Shown piece after piece: positions 9,955 through 28,437 of a stretch of DNA of 64,000 bases (position 1 is its first letter; every line of letters starts with the position of its first letter). This DNA comes from Polyangiaceae bacterium (GTDB taxonomy: Bacteria > Myxococcota_A > Polyangia > Polyangiales > Polyangiaceae). Under the pieces are notes generated by a model. The model made no database searches. It saw only the letters and a list, made by a program, of their open reading frames with translations, and was not told where the DNA came from. The translations under genes were made by a program, and so were the position numbers. Location: the NCBI GenBank assembly GCA_043755175.1, contig JAYUUB010000002.1, forward strand, positions 12,067-76,066, given 5' to 3'.

Positions 9955-11247
9955 ATGTCGTCCCCTCAGAAGCCGCCCGACCCTTACATTGGACGCGCCG
10001 TTCTCGGCGGTCAGTTCCTCATCGAGCAGAAGATCGGCTCCGGAGGAATGGGCGCGGTCTATCGGGCCTCGCAGCCCGCGATGAACCGACTCGTCGGGGT
10101 GAAGATTCTTCACCCGAAGCTGACGAACCGCAAAGATCTCGCCTCGCGCTTCCGACGCGAAGCGCGTGCGATGAGTCACTTGCAGCACCCGAACACGGTA
10201 CGCGTCTACCTGTACGGCGAGCTCGAAGACGGCTCGCTCTACATCGTGATGGAGTACCTCGAAGGTCGGAACCTGAATCAGAGCGTGCGCAAAGAAGGGC
10301 CTTTTCCCGTCGAGCGCGCGATCCCGATTCTCATCCAGTGCTGTGGCGCCCTCCAAGAAGCGCACTCACAAGGGATCATTCATCGCGATCTGAAGCCCGA
10401 GAACATCTTTCTCTCAACCAACGGCGGGCTAAAAGACTACCCGAAGGTTCTCGACTTCGGCCTCGCCAAGGTGACCGAACGCGAGCTTCGCCCCGGCTCC
10501 GTGATGCTCACCCAAGAGGGGATGGTGTTCGGCACGCCCGAGTTCATGTCACCCGAGCAGGCGCAGGGCAAAGTGCTCGACGCACGCAGCGACATCTACT
10601 CGCTCGCCACGATTCTCTACGAAGTGCTGACTGGCAAGCTGCCTTACGACGCCAAGACGCCGATGGAGTACATCCAGCTCCACGTCACCAAGCCGCCGAT
10701 GTCGCTCGACGATCGGATCCCCGGAAAGAAGTTCCCGGGAGGCCTGGCCGAAGTCATCGCAAAGGCATTGCAAAAGAATCCTGAGAACCGCTACAACTCG
10801 GCTTCCGAATTCGCCGACGCGCTGAAACCCTTCGCGATGGGTCGCACGTTCTCGGCGATCATGCCCGGCGGGTCGCCGGCCTCGCGTTCCATCGATCCGA
10901 CCCAGGTCGACCCGCAGAAGATTCCTGCGCCGGCGCCGAGCTCTGGGCGGAGGCCCGATGGCCCACCCGAGGTCGCGAAGACCATTCGGATGCAGGCTCA
11001 CCCGGCCGCGCTCAATCCGGGTGCCTACGCGCAACCAGGCAGCCATCGACAACCTCCTGCCAGCGGAGCGATGCCGAGCTCGGGGGTGCCGGCGAGCGAT
11101 CCGCGCGCGCCGCTCGGCATTCCTGTTTTGCCGGCCGTCGCCCAAAACCGCTCCGGAGTGAACCCCGTCGTTCTGGGGGTCGTCGCGGTCGTCTGTCTCC
11201 TGGTCGGAATCGCCATCACGCTCCTCGTGATGCGCGTGCTGACCTAG
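9955..11247 (+). CDS. Ser/Thr protein kinase with a C-terminal membrane anchor
   Basis: Canonical Hanks motifs: GSGGMGAVYRA, VGVKIL, HRDLKPENIFL, DFGLAK and SPEQ. A Pro-rich linker is followed by a terminal TM helix (VVLGVVAVVCLLVGIAITLLVM). Start ATG 9955 is preferred over track start 9865. Confidence 0.9.
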   Translation: MSSPQKPPDPYIGRAVLGGQFLIEQKIGSGGMGAVYRASQPAMNRLVGVKILHPKLTNRKDLASRFRREARAMSHLQHPNTVRVYLYGELEDGSLYIVMEYLEGRNLNQSVRKEGPFPVERAIPILIQCCGALQEAHSQGIIHRDLKPENIFLSTNGGLKDYPKVLDFGLAKVTERELRPGSVMLTQEGMVFGTPEFMSPEQAQGKVLDARSDIYSLATILYEVLTGKLPYDAKTPMEYIQLHVTKPPMSLDDRIPGKKFPGGLAEVIAKALQKNPENRYNSASEFADALKPFAMGRTFSAIMPGGSPASRSIDPTQVDPQKIPAPAPSSGRRPDGPPEVAKTIRMQAHPAALNPGAYAQPGSHRQPPASGAMPSSGVPASDPRAPLGIPVLPAVAQNRSGVNPVVLGVVAVVCLLVGIAITLLVMRVLT

Positions 11248-15642: not shown

Positions 15643-16275
15643 CTACCGACCGCGACGGGACGCGGGCGCGTCGATGAGGCCTTCGACCGTTCCGGCGCCT
15701 TCACGCACGATCACCACTTGTCCCTCGCTGAGATCGACGACCGTGGTTGGAAGAATACCGCCAGCTCCGCCGTCGAGGACCAGATCGAGTCCTTTGAACT
15801 CGTCGCGGATCTCCGTCGGATCGACCATCGCTTCTTCACCGGGGCGCGCCGCCGTCGTGCTGATGATGGGTCTGCCGAGGGCTTGCGTGAGCGCGATGAT
15901 GACCGGATGGTTGGGCACGCGAATCCCCACCGTCTTCTGCTTGGTGAGCACCATCTTCGGCACCTCGCGCGTCGCCTGCAAGATGAAGCAGTACGGACCC
16001 GGGAGGTAGTGCCGCAACATCCGGTACGCCGAGTTGTCGACCACGGCATACTTGGCGATGTCGGAAAGGTCGTGGCAGATGAACGCGAGGTTCTTGTTCT
16101 TCTGCATGCCCTTGACCTGATAGAGACGCTCGATGGCGCTCTTGTTCATCAGGTCACAGCCCAGCCCGTAGACCGTGTCGGTCGGGTACGCGATGAGGCC
16201 GCCCTTTTCGAGGACCTCGACGGCGCGCTGGATCTTGCGTGGCTCGGGATGTTCGACGTTGATATCTAGAAGCAC
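15643..16275 (-). CDS. YrdC/Sua5-family protein, YciO-like (threonylcarbamoyl-AMP synthase family)
   Basis: 210 aa with GGLIAYPTDTVYGLGCD...NLAFICHDLSDIAKYAVVDNSAYRML...PGPYCFIL...GIRVPNHP...PTTVVDL. It is colinear with my recollection of E. coli YciO. Confidence 0.8.
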   Translation of the reverse strand: MLLDINVEHPEPRKIQRAVEVLEKGGLIAYPTDTVYGLGCDLMNKSAIERLYQVKGMQKNKNLAFICHDLSDIAKYAVVDNSAYRMLRHYLPGPYCFILQATREVPKMVLTKQKTVGIRVPNHPVIIALTQALGRPIISTTAARPGEEAMVDPTEIRDEFKGLDLVLDGGAGGILPTTVVDLSEGQVVIVREGAGTVEGLIDAPASRRGR

Positions 16276-16338
16276 GTTCTCAAGAGAGGCGTTGCGAAGG
16301 CGATCACGGTCAGCTCCTGTGCTCGCCCAGGCACGACC

Positions 16339-17259
16339 TCACTCCTTGATGGCCTCGCTGCCGCCGATGATCTCCATGAGCTCCTTGGTGATCGCAGCTT
16401 GGCGCGCCTTGTTGTAGTCGAGCGTGAGGCCCTCGATCATCTCGGAGGCGTTCTTGGTTGCCGACTCCATCGCGGTCATCTGAGCACCGAAGAACGACGC
16501 CATCGACTCGTAGAGCGCTCGGAGGAGAGAGATGTCGACGTACATCGGCGCGAGCACCTCGAGGATGGCGCGCTGATCGGGCTCGAAGATGAATTGCGAC
16601 GTGTCTTCGACCTCCCCCTCGGGGGGCGGTGGCACGGGCAGGAGTCGTTCGGCGCTCACCTGCTGGGTGAGAGCGCTCTTGAACTCGTTGTAGATGACGT
16701 AGATCGCATCGACCTGGCCCTTGAGGAACGGCTCGAGAACCTTGTCTCCGAGGGCTTTCGCGGTCTCTTGCCCGAGCTTGTCCCAGACTCCCGCGATGTA
16801 CTCGATGGGCGCGCCACGGCGCGTGAGGTAGTCGCGACCTTTTCGGCCGACGACGATCATGCGCACCTCTTGGCCTTCGGCCGTTCGCGTCTTCCACTCG
16901 CGCTCGGCGCGCTTGTTGATGTTCGCGTTGAACGCGCCGCAGAGACCGCGGTCGCTCGTCAGGACGACGAGTAGAACGCGCTTCTCGGGCCTCGCGACAA
17001 GCAGCGGGTGAAGGGTCTCTTCGAGCACCTCCCCCGGCAGCTGCGCCTCGCCCTGCGCGCCGCCTTCGCTCGCGCGAACGAGGCGATTCGTGAGCTCGGC
17101 GAGCACGGTCGTCGTCTTGACTGCGTACGGGCGGAGCTCGGTGATGCGCTGCTGCGCACGGTTCAGCCGTGCACCTGCGACCATCTTCATCGCGCGCGTG
17201 ATCTTCTGCGTCGACTTGACGCTGATGATGCGCTTGCGGATCGTCTTGAGAGAGGGCAC
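16339..17259 (-). CDS. atpG: F-type ATP synthase subunit gamma
   Basis: GTG start. The N-terminus PSLKTIRKRIISVKSTQKITRAMKMVAGARL and the C-terminus QAAITKELMEIIGGSEA are gamma signatures. Confidence 0.95.
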   Translation of the reverse strand: MPSLKTIRKRIISVKSTQKITRAMKMVAGARLNRAQQRITELRPYAVKTTTVLAELTNRLVRASEGGAQGEAQLPGEVLEETLHPLLVARPEKRVLLVVLTSDRGLCGAFNANINKRAEREWKTRTAEGQEVRMIVVGRKGRDYLTRRGAPIEYIAGVWDKLGQETAKALGDKVLEPFLKGQVDAIYVIYNEFKSALTQQVSAERLLPVPPPPEGEVEDTSQFIFEPDQRAILEVLAPMYVDISLLRALYESMASFFGAQMTAMESATKNASEMIEGLTLDYNKARQAAITKELMEIIGGSEAIKE

Positions 17260-17262
17260 GCG

Positions 17263-19017
<1,755 letters not shown>

Positions 19018-19102
19018 CTAACGGTTAGTCAACTGCGACTACACAAGAGTTACAAAACGGGCGGGCGGCTGGAGTCAGCGCGTCGCGAATCAGAGCGCCG
19101 GA

Positions 19103-19645
19103 TCAGGTGGCGGTCGAAGCATCGCGAAGACCCCTGAGGCGGGCCCTCGCGCTGCCGTCGATGACCCGATCGCCGATGCGTGTGACCACGCCGGCGATGA
19201 GGCTCGGATCGACCGAATGGGTGATGGTGACTTTGTTACCGGTCGCTTTCTCGAGCTCGGCTTTGAGGCGGTCGATGTACGTTTCCGTCAGGGGAGCGGC
19301 GCTCGTGACGACGGCGCGAACGACCTTCGCGTCGTGATCGACGAGACGGGCCAAGTGACGCGCGATGTCGGGGAGCGCACGGAGGCGACGGCGATGCGCG
19401 ACGAGCCTCAGCGTGCGCTGAGCCGTGTCGGACGCGCCGAGCTTCGTCGCGATTTCGACCAGAATGGCCTTCTTCGATGCGTCGGGTACGACCGGGCTCT
19501 CGAGCACGTTCTTCAGCTCGGCGCTCTCGGCGTAGGCCGCCGCGAAGTCACCGATCTGGGTCGAGAGCGCGGCGAGGTTGCCCTCTTCTTTTCCGAGATC
19601 GAAGATCGCCTTCGCGTAGCGTCGAGCGATGTTGTCGTAGCTCAC
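19103..19645 (-). CDS. atpH: F-type ATP synthase subunit delta (OSCP)
   Basis: 180 aa. The GTG start overlaps the atpF stop (GTGA at 19642-19645). ARRYAKAIFDLGKE...LIAGVVTRIGDRVIDGS is typical of delta. Confidence 0.9.
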   Translation of the reverse strand: MSYDNIARRYAKAIFDLGKEEGNLAALSTQIGDFAAAYAESAELKNVLESPVVPDASKKAILVEIATKLGASDTAQRTLRLVAHRRRLRALPDIARHLARLVDHDAKVVRAVVTSAAPLTETYIDRLKAELEKATGNKVTITHSVDPSLIAGVVTRIGDRVIDGSARARLRGLRDASTAT

Positions 19646-20688
19646 GAATTGTCTCCCTGAAGGGTTTGCGAAGCCTTCAACGCCGGGCCGATGCCGGTGA
19701 GGTACTCGTCGGCCAAGCGGTCGAGATCGCCCTGCTGTACGCGCTGCTTCACGAGCTCTTCGGCTGCGCGAATCGCGCCGTCGATGGCCTCGCTCAAGAG
19801 ATCGGCCTCGGCCTGCCGCAGCTCTTGGGCGACGCGGAAGGCGGCGTCCTTGCGCATGCGCGCCCGCTTTTCCTCTGCTTCGTCGAGGATGCGCTTCTTC
19901 TCCGCGGCGAACTGCGCGCGGTAGTCGTCTTCGAGCTCGGTCCGGCGCTGCTCGATGTTCGAGAGCTGCTTCTGGTACTTCTTCAGCCGCGCCTCGGCTT
20001 CGTCACGCAGCGTGGCGGCAGCCTCGATGTCTTGCATGATCGCTTTTTTGCGCTTGATGAGTCCGTCGCGGAGCGGCGTCCCTCCAAAGCGGAAGAGTAG
20101 GAGCACGACGATGCCGAAGTTGATGAGGTTCGCGAGGACCGGAGGCTCCTGGTTCTTCGCGTCGCACTCGTCGTTCTCGTTCTTGTAGCGCCAGAGGAGG
20201 CGGTCGAGGCCCGACGGGCTCTCGGCCTTCTCGTTGTTCACCCCGAGGAGGCCTTGGTACCAATTGACATGCGGCGGCGAATCCATCGGGCCGTGGCCGG
20301 GACACTCGTGCTCACCTGCGCCGGCGTGCTCGTGGGCTTCGGCGTGCGGCGCGCCCGGGATCGGGGGATGGCCCGGAGGCATGCCGCCCGGACCACCAGG
20401 GCCCGGCTGCCGAGGGCGCGACGGCTGCGGAAATCCGGGCGGCAGCTGCTGCCCCGGCTGCATCTGGATCGGGCGCGGCTGCACCTGCGACGGCTGGGGC
20501 TGGCCCGGCTGGGGCATCTGCACCGGAGGACGTTGGCCTGGCTGGGGCTGGCCTGGCTGGGGCTGGCCTGGCCGCGGCTGGCCTGGCTGCGGCTGCGGCT
20601 GCGGCTGCGGCTGAGCCGCGCCGACGTTCGCGAGGAGCGCGGCGATGGCGAGCGAGCCAGCGCCGACGAGGCGGGTAACGAGTCTCAC
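19642..20688 (-). CDS. atpF: F-type ATP synthase subunit b with a long N-terminal signal-peptide plus Pro/Gln-rich extension
   Basis: The C-terminal 170 aa are a standard b subunit (TM LANLINFGIVVLLLF, then the coiled coil KKAIMQDIEAAATLRDEAEARLKKYQ...). Before them come MRLVTRLVGAGSLAIAALLANVGAA (signal-like), about 90 aa of PQ/PGQ repeats and a His/Cys-containing segment. The GTG start overlaps the b' stop (GTGA at 20685-20688). Confidence 0.85.
   Translation of the reverse strand: MRLVTRLVGAGSLAIAALLANVGAAQPQPQPQPQPGQPRPGQPQPGQPQPGQRPPVQMPQPGQPQPSQVQPRPIQMQPGQQLPPGFPQPSRPRQPGPGGPGGMPPGHPPIPGAPHAEAHEHAGAGEHECPGHGPMDSPPHVNWYQGLLGVNNEKAESPSGLDRLLWRYKNENDECDAKNQEPPVLANLINFGIVVLLLFRFGGTPLRDGLIKRKKAIMQDIEAAATLRDEAEARLKKYQKQLSNIEQRRTELEDDYRAQFAAEKKRILDEAEEKRARMRKDAAFRVAQELRQAEADLLSEAIDGAIRAAEELVKQRVQQGDLDRLADEYLTGIGPALKASQTLQGDNS
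20534..20611. repeat. coding tandem repeat (15-bp units then 6-bp units) encoding the PQPQ/PGQPQ tract of AtpF
   Basis: TGGCCTGGCTGGGGC-type 15-mers at 20534, 20549, 20564 and 20579, followed by TGCGGC x3 to 20611. Confidence 0.85.
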
Positions 20689-21155
20689 GAGCGCACCTCT
20701 CGGCCGAGCAGCTTGGAAGCGATTTGTTCTGCGAGCGCGGGGCGTGCCGTATCGAGGTCGGCGCGCAACGTCGCGACCTCTTTGGCGATGTTCACGCGAC
20801 CCTCCTCGATGATTCGAGCGCTCTCGGCCTTGGCCTCTTCGAGGATCTGGGTCTCGAGCTTGTTCGTCTCGACTCGGAGCCGATCGCGCTCGACGGTCGC
20901 CGTGTGGCGCGCCTTTTCGATCTCGGTCTCGAAGCGATGGAGCAGCTGGTTCGCTTTTTCATCCATCGACCGCGCATCGGCGCGTGAGCCGTCCGTCCGT
21001 CGCTCTCGTTCCTCGAACAGCTTGAGGAGCGGATCGAAGAGGATCGGCTTCAGAAGGATGCAAAAGAGGGCGAACAGCGCGAGTTGCGCCAAGAACGACA
21101 TGTCGAAGTCGACGTTGACGTCGGCGCCCGAGGCAAAGAGGAGAGGAAGGCTCAT
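20685..21155 (-). CDS. F-type ATP synthase subunit b' (second b-type subunit)
   Basis: I chose start ATG 21155 (MSLPLLFASG...). It has one TM helix (FLAQLALFALFCILL) followed by a charged coiled coil, and sits directly upstream of atpF. Confidence 0.75.
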   Translation of the reverse strand: MSLPLLFASGADVNVDFDMSFLAQLALFALFCILLKPILFDPLLKLFEERERRTDGSRADARSMDEKANQLLHRFETEIEKARHTATVERDRLRVETNKLETQILEEAKAESARIIEEGRVNIAKEVATLRADLDTARPALAEQIASKLLGREVRS

Positions 21156-21371
21156 GAGCTCTGGTTTCCCTTGGGAAGGTCGCTCCGCGGGAATGGGTCG
21201 CGGGCCACCTAGCACCTTTTGACGCGAGCCGGAAGGGTTGCGCAGCGAGGAGGGTGCTTCGCGCGGAGGCTGTGGGGTGAACACACTTTCCAAGCAGCCC
21301 CGCTCGCAGGCGGGCACCCTGTTTTTTCGTCGGCTTGAGCAGCGCTAGCTTTCTAGCGGCTCGGGCTCGGC

Positions 21372-21767
21372 TCAACCGCGGGTCCAGTCTTCGACCCGCA
21401 ATTGGGGAAAGACCGCGAACTGGTGGGGTCTTTTCGAAACCAACACGAAGCCTTGAGAGGTGGCGATGGCCGCCATCATCACGTCGTCGGCCTCGTGATC
21501 TGCGGCCACGGTCGCGCGGAGCTTTGCGAACGACTGCGCCGCAGGGAGATCGAACGGGGCTACGCGCACGGCGGCGACCAACTGAATGACGTTCTGCATG
21601 AGTCGTGGCTGCCCGAACCGGCGCGCCGAGACGAGGAGTTGGCTCACCGAGACCACACTCGTCCACCGATCGCGGCTCGCGATCGTCGCGAGCTTTCTCA
21701 CGAACGGGCGAGACGGTGAGGCTCGAAGCACTTCGGCCAAGGTGGATGTGTCGAACAGGTAGGCCAC
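21372..21767 (-). CDS. vapC: PIN-domain toxin (VapC family)
   Basis: 131 aa with a GTG start. The N-terminal YLFDTS and the acidic residues (..AADHEADDVMMAAIA..) fit a PIN fold. It lies downstream of a small antitoxin-like ORF. Confidence 0.75.
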   Translation of the reverse strand: MAYLFDTSTLAEVLRASPSRPFVRKLATIASRDRWTSVVSVSQLLVSARRFGQPRLMQNVIQLVAAVRVAPFDLPAAQSFAKLRATVAADHEADDVMMAAIATSQGFVLVSKRPHQFAVFPQLRVEDWTRG

Positions 21768-21818
21768 GAGCGCGATTTCTGGGGAGGTCCGTTGTCTTCG
21801 GGAAAGGGCGGGCCTAGG

Positions 21819-22100
21819 TCAGCCGCGACGCCACAGCGAGGTCTTTCCGAGGTCTTGTCCCAACGAGTCGACGAACTCGTCATGCTGGCAAGTGCCTGCG
21901 AGCATGACGAGCGGGTCGCCGCCCCCTGCCGACGGATCGGGCGGATCGACCCGGTCGAGGTCGGCCATAGGGACGATCGCCGCGATGGCGTGACCCTCTC
22001 TGACGATCAACGTTCGCGAGAGCGATCGCTCCGCGGCGTCGACTGCGTCGAGGCAATACGCCGGGAGATCGGCGATGGGGATTCCGTACTTGTTGTTCAC
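21819..22100 (-). CDS. antitoxin (Phd/YefM- or VapB-like)
   Basis: 93 aa with a GTG start. The N-terminal block ...LDAVDAAERSLSRTLIVREGHAIAAIVPMADLDRV resembles Phd/YefM-type antitoxins. It ends 51 nt upstream of vapC. Confidence 0.6.
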   Translation of the reverse strand: MNNKYGIPIADLPAYCLDAVDAAERSLSRTLIVREGHAIAAIVPMADLDRVDPPDPSAGGGDPLVMLAGTCQHDEFVDSLGQDLGKTSLWRRG

Positions 22101-22173
22101 GCGGCGCTCACGATCTCAGACGCTAGTAGAAGCGGTCGCTCAATTCAAACTCTCCAGACAGCCCTTTTTCGTA

Positions 22174-22215
22174 GCGGTCTTGCCCGAGCGGTCTTGCCCG
22201 AGCGGTCTTGCCCGA
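22174..22215. repeat. perfect 14-bp direct tandem repeat x3 (GCGGTCTTGCCCGA) upstream of the antitoxin gene
   Basis: Exact units at 22174-22187, 22188-22201 and 22202-22215. The repeat lies 74-115 nt upstream of the antitoxin start on the minus strand and 26 nt downstream of the preceding gene's stop. Confidence 0.9.
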
Positions 22216-22240
22216 GTGTCGCGCCACGGGCGTCGGATGA

Positions 22241-23599
22241 TCAGATGACTGCCGCGAGCTCGAAGCGGAGGGCTGCGAGCCCAAGCTCCGGCGCTTGGTC
22301 GCTCGGGGCTCCCGCGACGGCTGCTTGGTGGTGCTCGCTGCGAAGCGCTTCGTGGGCGCGAGGGTTCTCGAACCAGTCTTCGTCGAACGCCTCGCGGAGG
22401 CGCCCCCGATCACGGATCCCTGCGAGAATCGCCAGGAACCTCGCGGGATCGTTCCACGACAGTCGCGGGACCAGGCCCACCAGGTTCGAGGGAATCGGCG
22501 CGCCCAGCGCGACGGCGCTCTCTTCTTCGGCGAGTGAGCCCGCCTTCGCCCTCGTCTCCAGCAGCACATCGGCGAGTAACACCCGGAGCGCTTCGACGCG
22601 TAGCGAGCGCGCGAGCGCGCGGCCCACCCGCTGGGCCTGATCCCGTGCCGCCGCGCGCCCGAGACCCAGCGCGACTTGTGCGAACGCAGGCTCGGCGGGG
22701 AGCATCCCGAAGAGCGTGGCGCGTGACGTCGCGAGCGGGTCGAAGGGCGATCGCGCGAACGCGAAAGCCTTGTCTTTAGGGAGATCGGCGTCGACCAGCG
22801 CTTCGCCGAAGAGCGCCAGCGCCTTGCAGAACGAGGTCGCTCCGAGAGCTTCCGGAAGCTCTGCCACGTCGAGATCGAGGCCGTGCACGAGCGTGGTTCC
22901 ACCGAAGAGATCGGCCAGCCATCGAGGTCGGAGCGCAGCGGGCCAGCCGTCGTGCGCGTCACGCCCCTGGGCATCGTGGAGCAGCTCTTCCCACGCGTTT
23001 CCATCGCGTCCGACGCCGTTCGGGAGGACGCCCTCGGTCAGCCGCAGCGTCTCGCGCGCGAGGCCTTGGATGCGAGACAGCGAGATGTTGCAGCCGGGAG
23101 GAAACTCGCTCGCCGAAGGCCAACCCAAGAGTCGGATCGCCTCGACGCGACGTTCGGCGAGAACGCGGACCGCATCCGAGGTTCGGCTCGCGGCCTCACC
23201 GAGCAGTGTCGCGAGCAGACGGCGCTTCTCGGGGCTCGAATGCTCGCGCAACATCGCGCGCATCAAATCGTGGGCCGACCACTCCGACTCGATTCGGCTC
23301 GAGCGGTGCTCGGTGGCGTGCCACGCGTCGGCCACGTCGGTCGTGTCGTCCCAGAGCACGCGAACGAGGGTGAGCGCACCCACCCATTCGCGCAGCGCTT
23401 CGACGAGCGGATCTTTCGGAAGCTCCGACAGCTCGATGAAGCCGGCTTTGCAGCTCACGTGTCTCAGGCGTGAGAGCGGGGCAGCGCCCTCGTCGAGATC
23501 GCCGCGCCGGAGCGCACGAGACGATTTCGTCACGCGCTTCGTCGCGGCGCGGACGTCGCGATCGAGGCGAAGCAGATCGATGCCGATGACGTTACCCAT
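22241..23599 (-). CDS. hypothetical 452-aa helical protein
   Basis: A long ORF with good codon character. Its ATG at 23599 overlaps the miaE stop by 8 nt (ATGGGTAA). I recognise no motifs and there is no HExxH. Confidence 0.6.
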   Translation of the reverse strand: MGNVIGIDLLRLDRDVRAATKRVTKSSRALRRGDLDEGAAPLSRLRHVSCKAGFIELSELPKDPLVEALREWVGALTLVRVLWDDTTDVADAWHATEHRSSRIESEWSAHDLMRAMLREHSSPEKRRLLATLLGEAASRTSDAVRVLAERRVEAIRLLGWPSASEFPPGCNISLSRIQGLARETLRLTEGVLPNGVGRDGNAWEELLHDAQGRDAHDGWPAALRPRWLADLFGGTTLVHGLDLDVAELPEALGATSFCKALALFGEALVDADLPKDKAFAFARSPFDPLATSRATLFGMLPAEPAFAQVALGLGRAAARDQAQRVGRALARSLRVEALRVLLADVLLETRAKAGSLAEEESAVALGAPIPSNLVGLVPRLSWNDPARFLAILAGIRDRGRLREAFDEDWFENPRAHEALRSEHHQAAVAGAPSDQAPELGLAALRFELAAVI

Positions 23600-24236
23600 G
23601 GATGGTCGCGTCGCTCTTCAGCCCTCTGACGACCTCGGCCTCGATGCGAGCGAGATCGGCGAGGCGCGCATGCACACGATCGGTATCGCCTGTCACTTGC
23701 TCGGCGAGCTCGATGAAGGTGCGATGATGCCTGGCTTCTGCGGCGAACAGCTCGTCGTAGAAATCGGCGAGTCGAAGGTAATCGTCTCGCTTGGCCACGT
23801 CGGACGACGAGGTCGCATCGTCACGTAGCGCCGCTGCGAGGAGCTTGAATCGCTCGCACGACCGCGCCTCGATGAGTGATCCGACGAGCAGCCGGTCACT
23901 GATGGCACCGGTCGCCGACTTGTCGCGTCCGGTGGCGTGGGCCCGGCGGCGAAGCTCGGCGACGTAAAAATCTTCGCTCGGCGGTTCGAGCTTGAGGCCG
24001 CGTCGCTCGATCTCGTCGAGCACGCATCTGAAATGCCGAATCTCTTCTTCTGCGAGATCGACGAGACCACGGACGACCGCGGGATGATCGAGGCAGCGCG
24101 CCGAGAGCGCGATCGCATTCGAAGCGGCCTTCATCTCGCAATGAGCGTGATCGACCAGGATGCGGGTTAACCCGTCGAGAGCGCGGCGAGCCCATGCGGG
24201 GTGGGTAGAGCAAGCAAGTCCGAGCATCGTCGACAC
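23592..24236 (-). CDS. miaE: tRNA-(ms2io6A)-hydroxylase MiaE (ferritin-like diiron)
   Basis: 214 aa with DHAHCEMKAA, EEEIRHF, IEARSCERF and FAAEARHH, which are the diiron ligand motifs of MiaE. Confidence 0.85.
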   Translation of the reverse strand: MSTMLGLACSTHPAWARRALDGLTRILVDHAHCEMKAASNAIALSARCLDHPAVVRGLVDLAEEEIRHFRCVLDEIERRGLKLEPPSEDFYVAELRRRAHATGRDKSATGAISDRLLVGSLIEARSCERFKLLAAALRDDATSSSDVAKRDDYLRLADFYDELFAAEARHHRTFIELAEQVTGDTDRVHARLADLARIEAEVVRGLKSDATIHG

Positions 24237-24336
24237 CCTAGCAGGCTGTTGAAGAAGTCTCGGCGAAGGATTTTCGAGATGCGGTGGGTTTTAGCGCCAG
24301 CGGGACGACTTTCGAGGGGCGAGCCGACGGCAGCGC

Positions 24337-25344
24337 TCAGAACTGTTCGGCGGTCTTGGTGAGCCCGCTCGATTCGAGGAAGTACGCCACACTGAAGAAG
24401 ATCATCGTCGCGTTCGGTCCGACCAGCGTGCGCCTGACGCTCGCCTCGATCGAGAACTCACGGGACGTGTAGCCGACGCCACCGGAGAGGGCGTGCGATT
24501 TTGCACCTTGATCGAACCTGTAACCCAGTCGCAACGGTATGTGATCAATGAGTAGGTACTCTCCCCCTGCCATCACGCGCGCGGTCGGGTTCTTGTACGA
24601 GTTGAGATCGGCGACGCCGTCTGCCTCGATGGTGAAGTCTTTGGTGGCCACTGCCACCCCGCCACCGATCTTGGTCGAGAGGTAGCTGTTGCTCGGGAAG
24701 GTGAGGTTCTGTCCCGAGAGTCCGATGTAGACGATGTCTCCGGCCTTGACGGTGAGACCGGCGTCGAAAGTCGGAATGTTCACGAGCGCGAACCGACCAC
24801 CGGAAGGGTCTCTGAGGCCGCCCGATACCTTGCTCTTGCCGAGCGGACCGTCACCGTTCTCGGTGAGCTTGAGGTATCGTCCTCCGAGACCGATGAAGAA
24901 ATTCTCACCAATCGGCAGGGCGAGCGCGAGGCGGACGTCGAGCCACGATCGATCGGGACCTTTGGGATCGAGGAAGCCACCGGAGACCGCGACGCCGCCG
25001 GCCACTTTGCTCGTCGTCGAGTCGACGATCGCGCCGCCGTAGACCTGTCGGCCGTACTCGGGGGTCAACTGACCCATCGCCTCGATGTGGTAAACGCGAG
25101 TCAGCGCCAGGTTGGCCGGGTTGAGAAACGGCGCGGTGGTCCCGTTTCCAGCAGCCCGAAGCGCCCCGCCCATGGCCGAGCTTCGGGTCGTCTCGACCTC
25201 TCCGTAGTTGTACCCGAAGCTCGAGGGAGCGTCTGCGGAGGCAATGGTGCTCTGGGCGCTCGCCGTCCCAGACCAAGCTGCCATCGCAATGAGCCCCGCC
25301 CCTCCACCGAGGATGCAGCGCGACAGAAGCTTCGAGCGACTCAT
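24337..25344 (-). CDS. putative outer-membrane beta-barrel protein
   Basis: Signal peptide (...LIAMAAWSGTASAQS), alternating beta-strand-like pattern, Gly/Tyr-rich composition and a C-terminal Phe (..KTAEQF). Confidence 0.6.
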   Translation of the reverse strand: MSRSKLLSRCILGGGAGLIAMAAWSGTASAQSTIASADAPSSFGYNYGEVETTRSSAMGGALRAAGNGTTAPFLNPANLALTRVYHIEAMGQLTPEYGRQVYGGAIVDSTTSKVAGGVAVSGGFLDPKGPDRSWLDVRLALALPIGENFFIGLGGRYLKLTENGDGPLGKSKVSGGLRDPSGGRFALVNIPTFDAGLTVKAGDIVYIGLSGQNLTFPSNSYLSTKIGGGVAVATKDFTIEADGVADLNSYKNPTARVMAGGEYLLIDHIPLRLGYRFDQGAKSHALSGGVGYTSREFSIEASVRRTLVGPNATMIFFSVAYFLESSGLTKTAEQF

Positions 25345-26013
25345 GGCGGGTGCCCTACCGGACCGCCCGGGACTGGGCCAACTTTAACAAAACCCCCGAG
25401 CGGACCTTTCGACCGCGGCCTCCAAAACCGAGGCAGAATTCCTCAGATTTTTCTCGAAATGTTCGATGTGCCCGATATGGCACAGAATTTTTACTATTGA
25501 CCTGGTCGACGGTCGTGACTCTCCGCGCCTCCGCCGGTGCCCCTCGACTGCCGCTGTATCTGTGCTGCAAAGGTCGCTGATGACCGGTTTGGCCGGCGTC
25601 GCCGCCCGCTCGGAAGCGAGGCAGCGCCCGGAAAGAGCTGGCAAGAAAAACTGGTTATGGTTTCGGGCGCTTGAATCGTATTGGCAAGTTCCCCATGGAC
25701 TCCCGTCGGGGGGCGGTGGTACCTCAAAAAGGTGTCGCCGAAGTCCTTTTGGGCAGAGCGGCACGGGGGGCTGGCGCCAGGAAAGCCAGCGACCGCGACG
25801 AAACAGTTGAGCATCGGCTCACCCGTTCTCTGAAGCGATCGAGCGCGTGTGCTCACGTGTCTTTCAGTCGGTAGTGGGCTGTCTCTCAGAGAGCGCCCTT
25901 TTAGAAAACACCTTTCAGAGAATCTCTTTCAAAAACCCTTCAGAAAGCCTCCTCCAGAGAGCCGGAGAAGGCACCGAAGGCCGTTGGTAAGCCTGTCCCA
26001 GGAGCTTGAGCTC

Positions 26014-26112
26014 CTGGAAGAAGCTGCCAACGCTAAATGAAGCTGCAGGGCTGGAAGAAGCTGCAGGGCTGGAAGAAGCTGCAACGCTGAAAGAAGCACT
26101 CTGGAGAAGCTT
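26014..26112. repeat. 18-bp-period tandem array (about 5 units, core GAAGAAGCTGCANNGCTG)
   Basis: The best units are 26054-26071 and 26072-26089. Degenerate units flank them at 26018-26035, 26036-26053 and 26090-26107. Confidence 0.8.
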
Positions 26113-26254
26113 TCCAGAACAGGTTGTTCATAAGTCGTTCAGCAGCGCCTGTTCAGCTCGTCTGTTAGCGGTGCCCTCGACACGTTGTCGTGCTCCTTCC
26201 CAAAGGTTCGGGCAGGTTACGCCGCAATTCGATTCGTGCATTATCCCGTAATAG

Positions 26255-26317
26255 GTTCAGCGACCTTCACGTTTAGTGACTTCGCGTTCAGTGACCTTCG
26301 CGTTCAGGAACCTTTGA
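26255..26317. repeat. 16-bp tandem array x4 (GTTCAGTGACCTTCGC-like)
   Basis: Units are gttcagcgaccttcac, gtttagtgacttcgc, gttcagtgaccttcgc and gttcaggaacctttga. Further isolated GTTCAGC motifs occur at about 26136 and 26150. Confidence 0.8.
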
Positions 26318-26490
26318 AGCGCGCTTTTCCTTTGATCGACCGTCTCGTCGCTGCAGTGAAATTTCGCTGCAAGTGGCAGGGCGGTTTCTTTTTCCGGACT
26401 TCTTTTCTCGGACTTGGATACTCCCCTCCCGACGGCCGACCTCGGCGAGTTTCCCCAATAGGAAACAGACCAGTTTTCTCGCGAGGCCTC

Positions 26491-26503
26491 TGTGGAAAAC
26501 CTG
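26491..26503. promoter_or_regulatory. DnaA-box-like element (TGTGGAAAA, complement TTTTCCACA) within the 13-mer TGTGGAAAACCTG
   Basis: It differs by one base from the TTATCCACA consensus and is identical over 13 nt to the copy at 26725. Confidence 0.55.
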
Positions 26504-26724
26504 TTCATGGGACCGAGAGCGTCTGACCTGAAAGCGCCTTGCAGGAGAGAAATGAGGCGGGTAATGGTTCTGGAGACAACACGGTCTGCCCATGGCATGA
26601 AAGGCCTAAGCTCTCGAAAAAGCTGGAGAAGACTCGACTGGAAAGGAGCGGTGTCGCTTCTTTCGGAATCGTCGGCCGCGCTCCGTACGCCGATTCGCTT
26701 CTAGCGGGCTCTGTCAGCCAGGGT

Positions 26725-26737
26725 TGTGGAAAACCTG
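26725..26737. promoter_or_regulatory. DnaA-box-like element, second copy of TGTGGAAAACCTG
   Basis: An exact 13-nt repeat of 26491-26503, about 185 nt upstream of the dnaA ATG. Confidence 0.55.
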
Positions 26738-26919
26738 GGGGATTCGGTTTTCGCGAGAGCCGGCTTCTCAAATCAGTCCGCGACCAGGACTCGGTTCTCC
26801 GAGGCTCGGTCGCAGTAGCACGACGTCCGCGTCGATGAGTGGTGAGCCCGCTCTCTTTGCCGGTTCGTTCGTTCGATTGTCGCAGTTCTTTTGGTGCACC
26901 GAGGTTGACCGAGTCCCCC

Positions 26920-28437
26920 ATGACGGTTCGACGAGATCCCGCCCCCGACGCGTTCCTGCTCGCCATCGAGCACACGCGTTCGCTATCGCCTGCCACGTTC
27001 GACCAATGGTTCGCGAGTGTCGCGTTCGACGACCTGACCGACGGCGTACTCACGCTTCGGGTGCAGAACGAGTTCGTCCAAGAGTGGGTGCGTGACAACT
27101 TTCTCCCGACGCTCGCGGGCAAGCTCCGAGAAATCACGGGTCACTCGATACAGATCGCCTGGGTTCTCGATTCGAAGCTCGAGCACCCGATCGCGGTGGG
27201 CGATGCATCGGCGCCGATTCGTCCGCGCGCGCTCGTCAGCCGCCAGCAGGTCGCCATGCCTCCTCCGATGCAGGCCGCGCTCGCGTCGCACGCGTACGGC
27301 TCATCGCCGTCGCTTCCCGGAAACGGCCACGGCGCGTGGTCTGACGACGCCGCCCCGCCCAGCTCGCGCAACCGCGCCGCAGCGCTCCCTGTCGGTGTCG
27401 GACCCATCACCCTCGAAGATCTCAACCCGAAGCAGACCTTCGCAAACTTTGTCGTGGGTCCATCGAATCAGCTCGCCCATGCCGCCGCCATCGCGGCCGC
27501 GGGTGGCGGCGGACGCCGCTACAACCCGCTCTTCATCTGCGGCGGCACGGGTCTCGGCAAGACCCACCTCATGCACGCGATCGCTCACCGGATGCGGAGC
27601 GAACGGCTGACCGCGCGCATCCTCTACATTTCGGCAGAGCGCTTCACGAACGAGTTCATCACGGCGATTCAACATCACAAGATGGATGAGTTCCGAACGC
27701 GGTACCGATCGGCTTGCGACCTTCTCCTCGTCGACGACATCCAGTTTCTCGCAGGTCGCGAGCAGACGCAGGAAGAGTTCTTCCACACGTTCAACGCCCT
27801 GCATGGGCAAGACAAACAAATCGTCGTCACGAGCGACAAGTATCCACAGAACCTCGAGCGAATGGAGGAGCGCCTCGTCTCTCGATTCTCGTGGGGCCTC
27901 GTCGCAGACATTCAGGTTCCCGAGCTCGAGACCCGGGTCGCGATCGTTCGCAACAAGGCCGCCATCGAGGGCATCTCGCTAGAAGACGATGTCGCGTTGT
28001 TCCTCGCCCAGATGATCCGTTCCAACGTGCGTGAGCTCGAAGGGACGCTCATCCGTCTCGCGGCGAAGTCGTCGCTCACCGGGCGCGCCGTCGACATGGC
28101 GTTCGCCAAGAGCGAGCTGGCGGCCACGAGCTCGGCGCGGCCCCAGATGATGAGCGTCGAAGACATCCAGCGCGCCGTCTGTCATCACTTCCACCTCCGC
28201 TCGAGCGAGCTCGTCTCGAAAGACCGACACAAGAGCGTTGCCTTCGCGCGGCACGTCGCGATGTATCTCTGCAAGCAGCGTCTGAAGTGCAGCTTTCCGG
28301 AGCTGGGTCGCGCTTTCGGAAACCGCGACCACACGACGGTCATGAGCGCGGTGCGAAAGATCGAAGCGCAACGCGACACCGATCCCGAGGTGAGAGCTCA
28401 TCTCGAAGCGCTCGAGCGAAAGCTCGCCGACGGCTGA
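26920..28437 (+). CDS. dnaA: chromosomal replication initiator DnaA
   Basis: N-terminal domain I (FDQWFASVAFDDLTDGVLTLRVQNEFVQEWVRDNF), AAA+ motifs (NPLFICGGTGLGKTHL, LLVDDIQFL) and the C-terminal DNA-binding helix (VAFARHVAMYLCK...LGRAFGNRDHTTVMSA). ATG 26920 is preferred over track start 26839. Confidence 0.97.
   Translation: MTVRRDPAPDAFLLAIEHTRSLSPATFDQWFASVAFDDLTDGVLTLRVQNEFVQEWVRDNFLPTLAGKLREITGHSIQIAWVLDSKLEHPIAVGDASAPIRPRALVSRQQVAMPPPMQAALASHAYGSSPSLPGNGHGAWSDDAAPPSSRNRAAALPVGVGPITLEDLNPKQTFANFVVGPSNQLAHAAAIAAAGGGGRRYNPLFICGGTGLGKTHLMHAIAHRMRSERLTARILYISAERFTNEFITAIQHHKMDEFRTRYRSACDLLLVDDIQFLAGREQTQEEFFHTFNALHGQDKQIVVTSDKYPQNLERMEERLVSRFSWGLVADIQVPELETRVAIVRNKAAIEGISLEDDVALFLAQMIRSNVRELEGTLIRLAAKSSLTGRAVDMAFAKSELAATSSARPQMMSVEDIQRAVCHHFHLRSSELVSKDRHKSVAFARHVAMYLCKQRLKCSFPELGRAFGNRDHTTVMSAVRKIEAQRDTDPEVRAHLEALERKLADG

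Follow-up and report, generated by a model that had tools for sequence, protein, structure and literature searches.

Expression of dnaA is autoregulated in Escherichia coli and Bacillus subtilis. In E. coli, the dnaA promoters P1 and P2 have a DnaA box between them, and in B. subtilis clusters of boxes lie upstream of dnaA. Origin-proximal parS sites are usual, but not obligatory. The basal unwinding system (BUS) consists of one or more DnaA boxes, a short GC-rich spacer, DnaA-trios and an AT-rich region (PMC6669920, PMC8287927). For Sorangium cellulosum So ce56, Gao and Zhang (2008) predicted oriC between the kinase gene sce8163 and dnaN (PMC2650636); the Sorangium genome paper, in the part quoted there, states that the origin could not be located from GC skew.

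We analyzed the dnaA-upstream region of a Polyangiaceae MAG (Myxococcota), whose 8.6-Mb assembly comprises 300 contigs, with dnaA on contig C2 and dnaN on contig C5. Positions are those of the window, that is, the whole 64,000-nucleotide stretch of DNA that was analyzed. The original prediction had singled out the gap at 25345–26919 as the longest ORF-free stretch of the window. This gap is the longest between gene calls (1494–1575 bp; the next longest is 840 bp), and codon-position G+C periodicity is absent at 25320–26900, with a frame difference of 0.02–0.22 versus 0.3–0.48 in the flanking genes. Its G+C content is 57.4% versus 65.1% for the window, in line with the drop described earlier, whose counts of 30/60 and 45/60 were exact. 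The gap is thus non-coding, and a search of the assembly found a single copy of it and no dispersed matches. An Rfam search of 24500–27500 returned no match at E<1. The tandem arrays were found, and the AT-rich patch and the palindrome nearest to dnaA lie where they had been placed; the other palindrome was also present, but it starts one base earlier than claimed. As had been noted, all called genes at 15643–25344 are on the minus strand and dnaA is on the plus strand. The features of the region are as follows.

24337–25344, minus strand: divergent upstream gene from the ORF list, encoding a 335-aa protein; left boundary of the gap.
25445–25500, no strand assigned: AT-rich patch, 36% G+C, 100–155 bp upstream of the divergent gene start.
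25640–25694, plus strand: AT-rich/A-tract segment GGCAAGAAAAACTGG...CTTGAATCGTATTGGCAAGTT, adjoining the conserved motif on its 5' side in an alignment of 13–14 Polyangiaceae dnaA-upstream regions.
25695–25725, plus strand: conserved core ATGGAC-N13-CGGTGGTACCTC from the cross-genus alignment, pointing at dnaA.
25861–25963, no strand assigned: stretch with the lowest G+C in the gap (about 50%), containing short repeats of the TTCAGA / CTCTCAGAGAG type; mostly gaps in the congener alignment.
25998–26017, no strand assigned: perfect palindrome CCAGGAGC-TTGA-GCTCCTGG with an 8-bp stem, running into the 18-bp array.
26014–26097, plus strand: 18-bp tandem array, 4.6 copies of CTGGAAGAAGCTGCAACG, each unit 3 mismatches from TTTTCCACA.
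26100–26132, both strands: three degenerate box-like words, TTCTCCAGA at 26100 (minus), CTTTCCAGA at 26110 (plus) and GAACAGGTTGTTCATA at 26117–26132.
26255–26311, plus strand: 16-bp tandem array, 3.4 copies of GTTCAGTGACCTTCGC at 26255–26307.
26386–26415, plus strand: 14-bp repeat, two copies of TTCTTTTCCCGGAC.
26449–26466, no strand assigned: palindrome GTTTCC-N6-GGAAAC, holding the 2-mismatch box GTTTCCCCA.
26491–26503, minus strand: predicted DnaA box 1, TTTTCCACA (plus strand, TGTGGAAAA followed by CCTG), 429 bp upstream of the dnaA ATG.
26725–26737, minus strand: predicted DnaA box 2, a 13-mer identical to box 1, 195 bp upstream of the dnaA ATG.
26896–26919, plus strand: conserved segment CCGAGGTTGACCGAGTCCCCC, immediately 5' of the dnaA start.
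26920–28437, plus strand: dnaA, start codon ATG at 26920, product of 505 aa with Pfam domains DnaA_N, Bac_DnaA and Bac_DnaA_C.

The product of the divergent gene matched no Pfam family and shows 85% amino acid identity to that of the same-position gene in a congener (G001). Judging from position alone, the AT-rich patch is probably part of the promoter region of this gene, and the congener keeps part of the area (ACTATTGACCT...GGTCGT.GAC at about 25485–25520 and TGTATCTGTGCTGCA at about 25556–25570). At the other end, dnaA is present in one copy in the whole assembly, and the proteins of relatives match it from residue 1. The segment before its start codon is near-identical in the congener and is probably the translation-initiation region of dnaA.

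The sole family-conserved part of the gap is an element of about 90 bp at 25640–25725; outside it, the gap diverges fast, even inside the genus, as shown by comparison with the congener. An nhmmer search located the element 5' of dnaA, in the orientation of the gene, in L001, L002, L007–L013, L017, L018, G001 and So ce56. It was seen in this arrangement in 14 genomes, and it is single-copy in the studied genome. Its core can be parsed as a putative promoter, with a -35-like TGGACT (25696–25701), an 18-nt spacer and an extended -10 made of TGn (25717–25719) and TACCTC (25720–25725), which would place the transcription start at about 25731–25733. Conserved across the 14 genomes are T-G-C of the -35, TG-n-TA of the extended -10, the fixed spacing between them and an AT-rich tract upstream. 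The CGGTG-TA columns of the alignment are invariant, and the spacing is free of gaps except in L008. The segment at 25640–25694 looks like an UP element, and its counterpart in the relatives is much more AT-rich. A strict sigma-70 consensus scan gave no site in the element, in which the last -10 position is not T and the -35 agrees with TTGACA at 3/6 positions. RNAalifold on the 14 sequences of the element gave 0 consensus pairs. The distance from the element to dnaA is about 1.2 kb in the studied genome and 0.33–0.95 kb in the relatives. A small ORF was rejected as an explanation of the element, one frame being stopped in Minicystis rosea and the other frames not being conserved in the alignment. 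The spacing and bases also misfit the sigma-54 and ECF-type promoter consensus sequences.

The two identical 13-mers described as containing DnaA boxes were recovered exactly (TGTGGAAAACCTG at 26491–26503 and 26725–26737), and both are exact boxes of the high-affinity type. The proposed scan with 1–2 mismatches gave a divided answer: the two exact boxes are non-random, TTTTCCACA occurring 7 times in the 8.6-Mb assembly and two of these occurrences falling within 1575 bp (P ~8e-7), whereas boxes with ≤2 mismatches are not enriched in the gap (9 seen versus 5.7 ± 2.6 expected, P=0.14). No 600-bp window of the gap holds at least three boxes at ≤1 mismatch, and boxes with 0–1 mismatch number two in all. 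Two-box sites occur elsewhere in the assembly too, as at C277:10805–10967. The congener keeps the orthologue of box 1 along with its flank (AGGCC-CTGTGGA-AAC), and it carries five same-orientation boxes upstream of dnaA. Four of its boxes form an array with a 17-bp period (L082:1818–1885), which reads CCTGTGGAAAC / CCTGTGGAAAAGCTGT / CCTGTGGAGAACCTGT x2. In the pairwise alignment this array is overlapped by the 18-bp array of the studied genome, with an AAGCTG flank in common, and we read the 18-bp array as decayed or low-affinity DnaA-box repeats. Such a head-to-tail four-box array is more than simple autoregulation usually needs. Among the three degenerate words that follow, GAACAGGTTGTTCATA agrees with the extended box motif at 13/16 positions in inverted orientation; these words could be weak sites, and they may have arisen by chance. 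The 16-bp array lies mostly opposite gaps in the congener alignment and is therefore lineage-specific. Of 26 dnaA loci scanned in Polyangiaceae and related Myxococcota, 25 have 1–5 box-like words with 0–1 mismatch in the 2 kb upstream, with a mean of 2.0 in the last 800 bp before dnaA. The boxes of the relatives lie mostly at -20 to -280 and are often paired 11–14 bp apart.

The main claim of the original prediction, that the gap is the replication origin, was not borne out: there is no unwinding module and no significant cluster of weak boxes in it and no parS site nearby, and its orthologues lie far from the polarity switch. The module was searched for by the rule of PMC8287927 (a box with ≤2 mismatches, 0–16 nt, at least three NAN trios and an AT-rich run), and trio calls rest on this rule together with the conservation of the central adenines. 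On neither strand of 25345–26919 was a box followed at 0–16 nt by (NAN)x3 and an AT-rich DUE, and no parS-like site was found on C2 at ≤3 mismatches. The orientation switch said to mark an origin is real in that the genes diverge as stated, but it says little on the origin; the leading and lagging strands carry coding length in a 51:49 ratio. No switch of strand polarity was seen across the gap on C2, where both flanks tend towards a leading plus strand, in tests that are all weak. To the left of the gap the strand-corrected GC3 skew was +0.024 ± 0.015, and to the right it was +0.016 ± 0.013; GGGNAGGG occurred in low counts, three times on the plus strand to the left and 4+:1- to the right. 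The 6-mer log-likelihood, of low power, reached +27.6 for the left flank and +196 for the right one. Since the replication-linked GC3 skew of this genome is as weak as about 0.008, with a contig z-score SD of 1.33, contig-level GC3 skew decides for neither the dnaA gap nor the candidate locus on C5 described below. Among de novo polar 8-mers of the studied genome, GGGNAGGG-type words alone stand out and the others are at noise. The 6-mer naive-Bayes polarity classifier reached 80–87% accuracy in cross-validation, a value that is optimistic since the labels come from the GGGNAGGG-type motif, and it gave the same sign on both flanks at both candidate loci, which favors neither.

The most probable origin of the chromosome is a 376-bp gap on contig C5 (C5:18300–18675), which separates dnaN from a Ser/Thr kinase gene in the order gyrB-dnaN, gap, kinase. 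This locus lies at least 56 kb from dnaA, its order and true distance being limited by the 300-contig assembly. It is the only non-coding cluster of at least three boxes per 600 bp in 8.6 Mb; the box 'clusters' on C213 and C146 were rejected as coding low-complexity repeats (QQAALPQ / PYPQQ) and not DNA sites. At ≤2 mismatches, 5 boxes were found in the C5 gap versus 1.1 expected (P=0.006). The gap contains ATTTCCACA-ggccc-TAC GAT GAC GAC followed by an AT-rich run, and the unwinding rule is matched there with a box at ≤2 mismatches, a 5-nt spacer, four NAN trios and the AT-rich run. In a dnaN-upstream alignment of 15 Polyangiaceae, TTATCCCCA, nnnTCCACAG, GGCC, CTAC.A..A.GAC and the AT-rich run are kept, and the central A of each trio is conserved. 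The whole assembly holds two parS sites at ≤2 mismatches, C5:20846 and C5:20883, 2.2 kb from the C5 gap. Across the family, 23 of 80 dnaN loci have parS at a distance of 2.2–2.9 kb on the 5' side of dnaN, compared with 0 of 48 dnaA loci and a background of 0 in 2.4 Mb (P=6e-6). A clear polarity switch was not seen at the C5 gap within the studied genome, where the tests are weak; the left flank scored +12.7 with the 6-mers, although an origin there predicts a negative value, again in a weak test.

We then turned to two complete genomes, So ce56 and M. rosea, in both of which the DNA before dnaA has the conserved element and boxes. Over the interval 11.24–11.38 Mb of So ce56, where dnaN lies, the sampled GC skew changes from -0.0225 to +0.0088, and it shows no change at dnaA. 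The strand counts of GGGNAGGG (+:-) in So ce56 were 36:59 to the left of dnaN, 68:24 in the interval from dnaN to dnaA, and 64:34 beyond dnaA on the right (P=9e-7). In M. rosea they were 11:46 to the left of dnaA, 19:56 in the interval from dnaA to dnaN, and 36:13 beyond dnaN on the right (P=1.5e-7); raw GC skew is flat in this genome, and motif polarity alone is usable there. The dnaA-upstream regions are thus 1.68 Mb (So ce56) and 0.87 Mb (M. rosea) from the polarity switch at dnaN. The sampled skew and the GGGNAGGG counts of So ce56 reproduce the switch at the oriC locus predicted in PMC2650636. That locus and C5:18300–18675 are orthologous, with the common flanks kinase, gap and dnaN-gyrB and with box-like words in both. 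With the predicted origin locus at dnaN in So ce56 and its orthologue on C5, an origin in the gap before dnaA is unlikely. New beyond PMC2650636 are the conserved module of box, spacer, NAN trios and AT-rich run and the linked parS sites.

Taken together, the gap at 25345–26919 is likely to be a control region of dnaA and not the chromosomal replication origin. This is the alternative that had been offered alongside the origin, a dnaA autoregulatory region plus something else, and it is favored by the two boxes and the promoter-like element upstream of dnaA. The evidence favors taking the 'something else' as this conserved element together with fast-evolving repeats partly derived from DnaA boxes. 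An sRNA, one of the suggestions made for it, found no support in Rfam (no match at E<1) or in a consensus structure; the other, a remnant of foreign DNA, is at odds with a single-copy gap that has no ORF remnants and is syntenic across genera. As judged from sequence, the most likely function of the gap is dnaA transcription with DnaA autoregulation. The conserved element (UP-like AT-rich tract, TGGACT, 18-nt spacer, extended -10 TGnTACCTC) would serve as the dnaA promoter. Transcription would start near 25732 and pass through a leader of 1.19 kb into dnaA, whose expression would be lowered by DnaA bound to the two boxes and perhaps weakly to the decayed repeats at 26014–26132. Few leaders would be expected to reach about 1.2 kb, and this unusual length counts against the promoter reading. 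The boxes lie 760–1000 bp downstream of the putative start, which excludes simple promoter occlusion as the mechanism unless a proximal promoter exists; a second promoter closer to the boxes may be present. We also offer, as a conjecture that is more likely wrong than right by a good margin, that after dnaA left the dnaN-oriC block in the Polyangiaceae ancestor, an origin-derived box array was kept as a fast-evolving, slippage-driven DnaA 'sensor' in the exceptionally long 0.3–1.2-kb leader. If so, this array would adjust the supply of initiator in slow-growing bacteria with very large genomes, where dnaA and the origin can be 1.7 Mb apart. The four intact boxes of one species and the decayed 18-bp array of the studied genome would be two outcomes of such slippage.

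Other readings of the gap were weighed against the control region. DnaA might bind the two boxes and weaker sites and open an AT-rich stretch here, making the gap the chromosomal origin, a second origin or the distant half of a bipartite origin. The neighborhood of dnaA is the ancestral origin site in many bacteria, and the gap offers two perfect species-type boxes, lower G+C, repeats and AT-rich tracts at 25445–25500 and 25640–25690, with a four-box tandem array in the congener; polarity tests within the studied genome are too weak to decide against it. However, both C2 flanks lean to the same polarity, these AT-rich tracts lie 750–1000 bp from the boxes, the box-trio-AT-rich module is absent, weak boxes are unenriched and parS is not nearby. 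The complete conserved module and parS are found at dnaN on C5 instead, and the orthologues of the gap sit 0.9–1.7 Mb from the polarity switch in two complete genomes, so an origin of any of these kinds is quite improbable. A locus that titrates DnaA or switches its state, like E. coli datA/DARS, and thereby controls the active-DnaA pool, in place of dnaA transcription or besides it, would account for the fast change in box number (2 here, 5 in the congener, 1–5 in the family) and for boxes in one orientation with the extended flank CCTGTGGAAAACCTG. The decayed 18-bp array would likewise suggest selection on a multi-site array and not on a single operator. Nevertheless, we regard this role as unlikely, given that the studied genome has two strong sites only and that the boxes of relatives are always close to the dnaA start, a few hundred bp away at most, as promoter control predicts.

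The conserved element itself could be the promoter of a separate ncRNA, or of a leader ending before dnaA, with dnaA under its own proximal promoter. Its distance to dnaA varies from 330 to 1200 bp among genomes, the long spacer is poorly conserved, as if the ends alone mattered, and at 25714–25750, overlapping the element and extending past it, there is a terminator-like hairpin with a T-run. But the hairpin at 25714–25740 includes the -10-like motif and is lost in more distant relatives in the alignment, and the sequence past the element is conserved in the closest relatives only, with no consensus structure and no Rfam match; a separate transcript therefore has little probability in our view. 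Insertion of foreign or mobile DNA before dnaA would fit a G+C content below the surroundings as well as the tandem repeats and palindromes. It is extremely unlikely, as the gap has neither further copies or dispersed matches in the assembly nor ORF remnants, and a long low-G+C gap with the conserved element occupies the same place in other genera; this synteny largely refutes it.

Automated annotation often puts oriC beside dnaA; the data indicate that this would be wrong for Polyangiaceae, and the studied genome illustrates how the error can be recognized. The prediction of an origin at dnaN is backed by four independent lines (the module, parS, GGGNAGGG polarity in two genomes and GC skew in So ce56) and is here extended to an uncultured genus. 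For the gap itself, the yield is a candidate family-wide dnaA promoter and fast-turnover box arrays in a long leader, which are targets for studying control of initiator supply in 9–16-Mb myxobacterial genomes.

Compared with known systems, the BUS is matched by the dnaN-upstream gap on C5 and is absent from either strand of the dnaA-upstream gap. Like non-origin box clusters (E. coli datA and DARS; B. subtilis), the dnaA-upstream gap has same-orientation boxes whose copy number varies between relatives; in contrast to datA/DARS, it has two strong boxes only, and these stand directly before dnaA, so that promoter control is the simpler reading. If a box array was retained before dnaA, as conjectured above, it would resemble the half of the B. 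subtilis origin that comprises incA/incB. In contrast to that of B. subtilis, the dnaA region has no physical link to the origin. It also differs from E. coli and B. subtilis in a putative promoter about 1.2 kb from the start codon, in boxes far downstream of that promoter and in a spacer with lineage-specific tandem arrays. What it shares with the autoregulated dnaA promoters of E. coli and B. subtilis is strong boxes a few hundred bp before dnaA, which in its relatives are conserved in presence and not in exact position, along with a promoter-like element that points at dnaA.

Non-coding, single-copy and carrying two high-affinity-type DnaA boxes together with a conserved element that points at dnaA, the stretch at 25345-26919 (hereafter the gap) is likely to be the control region of dnaA and not the replication origin. 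No other gap in the window is as long, and the third-position G+C periodicity of both flanking genes is missing here. The repeats, motifs and palindromes listed in the original prediction were all found in place, one palindrome beginning one base earlier, at 25998; short tandem arrays are frequent across the whole window. The 18-bp array, the GTTCAG array and the 13-mers were each confirmed. DnaA of this genome (G000; 8.6 Mb in 300 contigs, the window being C2:12067-76066) is 74-75% identical to DnaA of Minicystis rosea and Sorangium and places the genome in the Polyangiaceae (Myxococcota). The gene and the promoter-like motifs upstream are as follows:

26920-28437, plus strand: dnaA, sole copy in the assembly, all three DnaA Pfam domains present
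25696-25701, dnaA's strand: -35-like hexamer TGGACT, followed by an 18-nt spacer
25717-25718 and 25720-25725, dnaA's strand: extended -10, TG and TACCTC

On any statistical measure the two TGTGGAAAACCTG 13-mers in the gap are genuine DnaA boxes: TTTTCCACA occurs only seven times in 8.6 Mb, and two of these occurrences fall within the 1575 bp of the gap (P about 8e-7). Weaker boxes with up to two mismatches showed no excess in the gap (9 sites vs 5.7 ± 2.6 in Markov-1 simulations, P = 0.14). Among 26 loci from Polyangiaceae and related Myxococcota, 25 had, within 2 kb upstream of dnaA, one to five box-like words with 0-1 mismatch, mostly at -20 to -280 and often as an inverted pair with 11-14 bp spacing. 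Two further exact TTTTCCACA boxes, inverted and 154 bp apart (C277:10805-10813 and 10959-10967), sit on another contig in a gap of ~500 bp between the genes for an 878-aa protein and a 747-aa kinase-like protein; C277:10805-10967 is a candidate DnaA-regulated promoter, distant from dnaA and dnaN.

Only one segment of the gap, 25640-25725, is conserved beyond the genus. A profile search with this element returned one copy in G000 and one upstream of dnaA in each of 13 other Polyangiaceae including Sorangium cellulosum So ce56, always on dnaA's strand and 330-1200 bp from the start codon. The core alignment is gap-free except in locus L008, with invariant columns at T-G-C of ATGGAC/ATTGTC/ATAGAC and at CGGTG-TA, and by our own count the AT-rich tract upstream of the -35-like hexamer falls to about 27% G+C in relatives. 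The element fails a strict consensus promoter scan. From these motifs we infer that it is the promoter of dnaA and that transcription begins near 25732. A terminator-like hairpin with an 11-bp stem (CGGTGGTACCT-CAAAA-AGGTGTCGCCG) followed by a T-run lies at 25714-25750, overlapping the conserved -10-like motif; its stem is retained in the closest relatives only.

The rest of the gap turns over quickly. The congener G001 has a 1316-bp dnaA gap with the same flanking genes, and global alignment of the two gaps gave 49% identity overall, with the following conserved islands:

the start of the divergent gene
about 25485-25520 and about 25556-25570
the promoter-like element, where about 60 nt are almost identical
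the box at 26491 and its flank
the final 25 nt before the dnaA ATG

In G001 (contig C92; dnaA locus L082, 1818-1885), head-to-tail boxes, four in all, repeat every 17 bp (CCTGTGGAAAC, CCTGTGGAAAAGCTGT and CCTGTGGAGAACCTGT twice) about 280-350 bp after the element, and a fifth box lies at L082 2098-2108. The G000 18-bp array at 26014-26097 overlaps this four-box array in the alignment and shares its AAGCTG flank; its box part appears to have decayed to CTGGAAGAA, with three mismatches. The G000 16-bp and 14-bp arrays mostly lie opposite alignment gaps in G001.

The proposal that the gap is a replication origin is not supported; the origin hallmarks missing from it are present at dnaN. By the published rule for an unwinding module, a box with at most two mismatches followed after 0-16 nt by at least three NAN trios (Pelliciari et al., PMC8287927), none was found on either strand of the gap, and its AT-rich tracts (25445-25500 and 25640-25690) are 750-1000 bp away from its boxes. 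The corresponding features on contig C5 are as follows:

C5:17145-18299, minus strand: dnaN, the only one in G000, followed by gyrB
C5:18300-18675 (L084 1864-2239): 376-bp gap across which dnaN faces a Ser/Thr kinase gene
C5:20846-20861 and C5:20883-20898: parS sites, near-consensus TGTTTCACGTGAAACC and CGTTTCACGTGAAACG

The C5 gap is the sole non-coding place in the assembly with at least three boxes (at most one mismatch to TTWTCCACA) per 600 bp, and with up to two mismatches it holds 5 boxes vs 1.1 expected (P = 0.006). It reads ATTTCCACA-ggccc-TAC GAT GAC GAC, then an AT-rich run, TTGATCATTTATATCTCTCTCTC. The two parS sites, 2.2 kb away, are the only ones in the whole assembly within two mismatches of TGTTTCACGTGAAACA; parB is on contig C28, not C5. 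The oriC of So ce56 was predicted between the kinase gene sce8163 and dnaN (Gao & Zhang, PMC2650636), exactly the same neighbours as here. On this sequence evidence, C5:18300-18675 is probably the oriC of G000.

Complete relatives place the strand polarity switch at dnaN, not dnaA, in two genera, because the So ce56 skew and KOPS-like word GGGNAGGG, and the M. rosea GGGNAGGG, change there. In So ce56, sampled as 60 x 20 kb, raw GC skew was -0.0225 ± 0.0058 left of dnaN, +0.0088 ± 0.0033 from dnaN to dnaA, and +0.0089 ± 0.0043 to the right of dnaA; a single change point was placed best at 11.24-11.38 Mb, a range that contains dnaN (11.355 Mb). The plus:minus counts of GGGNAGGG across these intervals were 36:59, 68:24 and 64:34 (left vs between, P = 9e-7; between vs right, not significant), and a dif-like site was found at the position given by Gao & Zhang (PMC2650636). 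In M. rosea GC skew is flat, and GGGNAGGG counts were 11:46 left of dnaA, 19:56 from dnaA to dnaN and 36:13 right of dnaN (P = 1.5e-7); the dif-like site, located at 3.09 Mb, falls nearer the point opposite dnaN than that opposite dnaA. In the segments sampled from the two genomes, 65-81% of GGGNAGGG copies are on a single strand, so that in Polyangiaceae the word acts as a KOPS-like polar motif; it is useful for locating origins in the family, as it reveals the replichore switch even in a genome with flat GC skew such as M. rosea. The dnaN-dnaA distance is 1.68 Mb in So ce56 and 0.87 Mb in M. rosea (CP016211), whose dnaA lies on the plus strand at about 9.704 Mb and dnaN at 10.57 Mb. With the origin at dnaN, M. 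rosea dnaA would be on the left replichore and transcribed head-on to replication, whereas So ce56 dnaA would be co-directional; dnaA would therefore lie on either side of the origin by genus.

Within G000, 64% of neighbouring GGGNAGGG pairs share orientation (P = 1e-12; implied bias about 0.76). On the window's contig, C2, the count is 7 plus to 1 minus, with the three to the left of the gap in one tandem cluster. At 1496-1538 of the window, three exact 14-bp tandem units of CTCGAGGGCAGGGT each carry the polar motif GGGCAGGG, all on the plus strand. To the left and right of the gap alike, strand-corrected GC3 skew is positive, and a 6-mer classifier gave +27.6 (left) and +196 (right). These low-power C2 tests lend mild support to left-to-right replication through the gap; no clean switch was seen at the C5 gap either. 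The flanking-gene orientation switch read as an origin sign is indeed there, but it carries little weight because coding length divides 51:49 between strands (contigs oriented by the polar motif). Leading-strand gene preference is absent (51%), and replication-linked GC3 skew is about 0.008, almost nil, in agreement with the published "no GC-skew inversion" in Sorangium.

The probability beside the control-region reading is shared by four rivals: a datA/DARS-like role built on the boxes, a distinct RNA, an origin (true or secondary) and foreign DNA. An RNA would have to be reconciled with zero Rfam matches in the gap at E < 1 and with RNAalifold predicting no common structure for the element alignment. 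Foreign DNA would fit a G+C content of 57.4% vs 65.1% in the window; no second copy of the gap was found in the assembly, and So ce56 and M. rosea both have its orthologue, conserved element and boxes included. Under the preferred reading, a dnaA control region, the conserved element would drive dnaA, and DnaA on the boxes, possibly on weak sites too, would lower dnaA expression.

Family-wide evidence again concerns dnaN. Of 80 dnaN loci in the family, 23 have a parS site 2.2-2.9 kb upstream of the gene, vs 0 of 48 dnaA loci (P = 6e-6) and none in 2.4 Mb of sampled background. We aligned 420 bp upstream of dnaN from G000 and 14 other Polyangiaceae, including Sorangium, Minicystis, Polyangium, Chondromyces and Byssovorax. 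The alignment contains a single conserved module, consisting of a TTATCCCCA box with a nnnTCCACAG box directly beside it, then GGCC, CTAC.A..A.GAC and an AT-rich run; adenine is retained at every third position of CTAC.A..A.GAC in the 15 genomes, and AACCCTGCTAAGAG is conserved directly before dnaN. Box, GC spacer, NAN trios and AT-rich run follow one another here as they do in the basal unwinding system.
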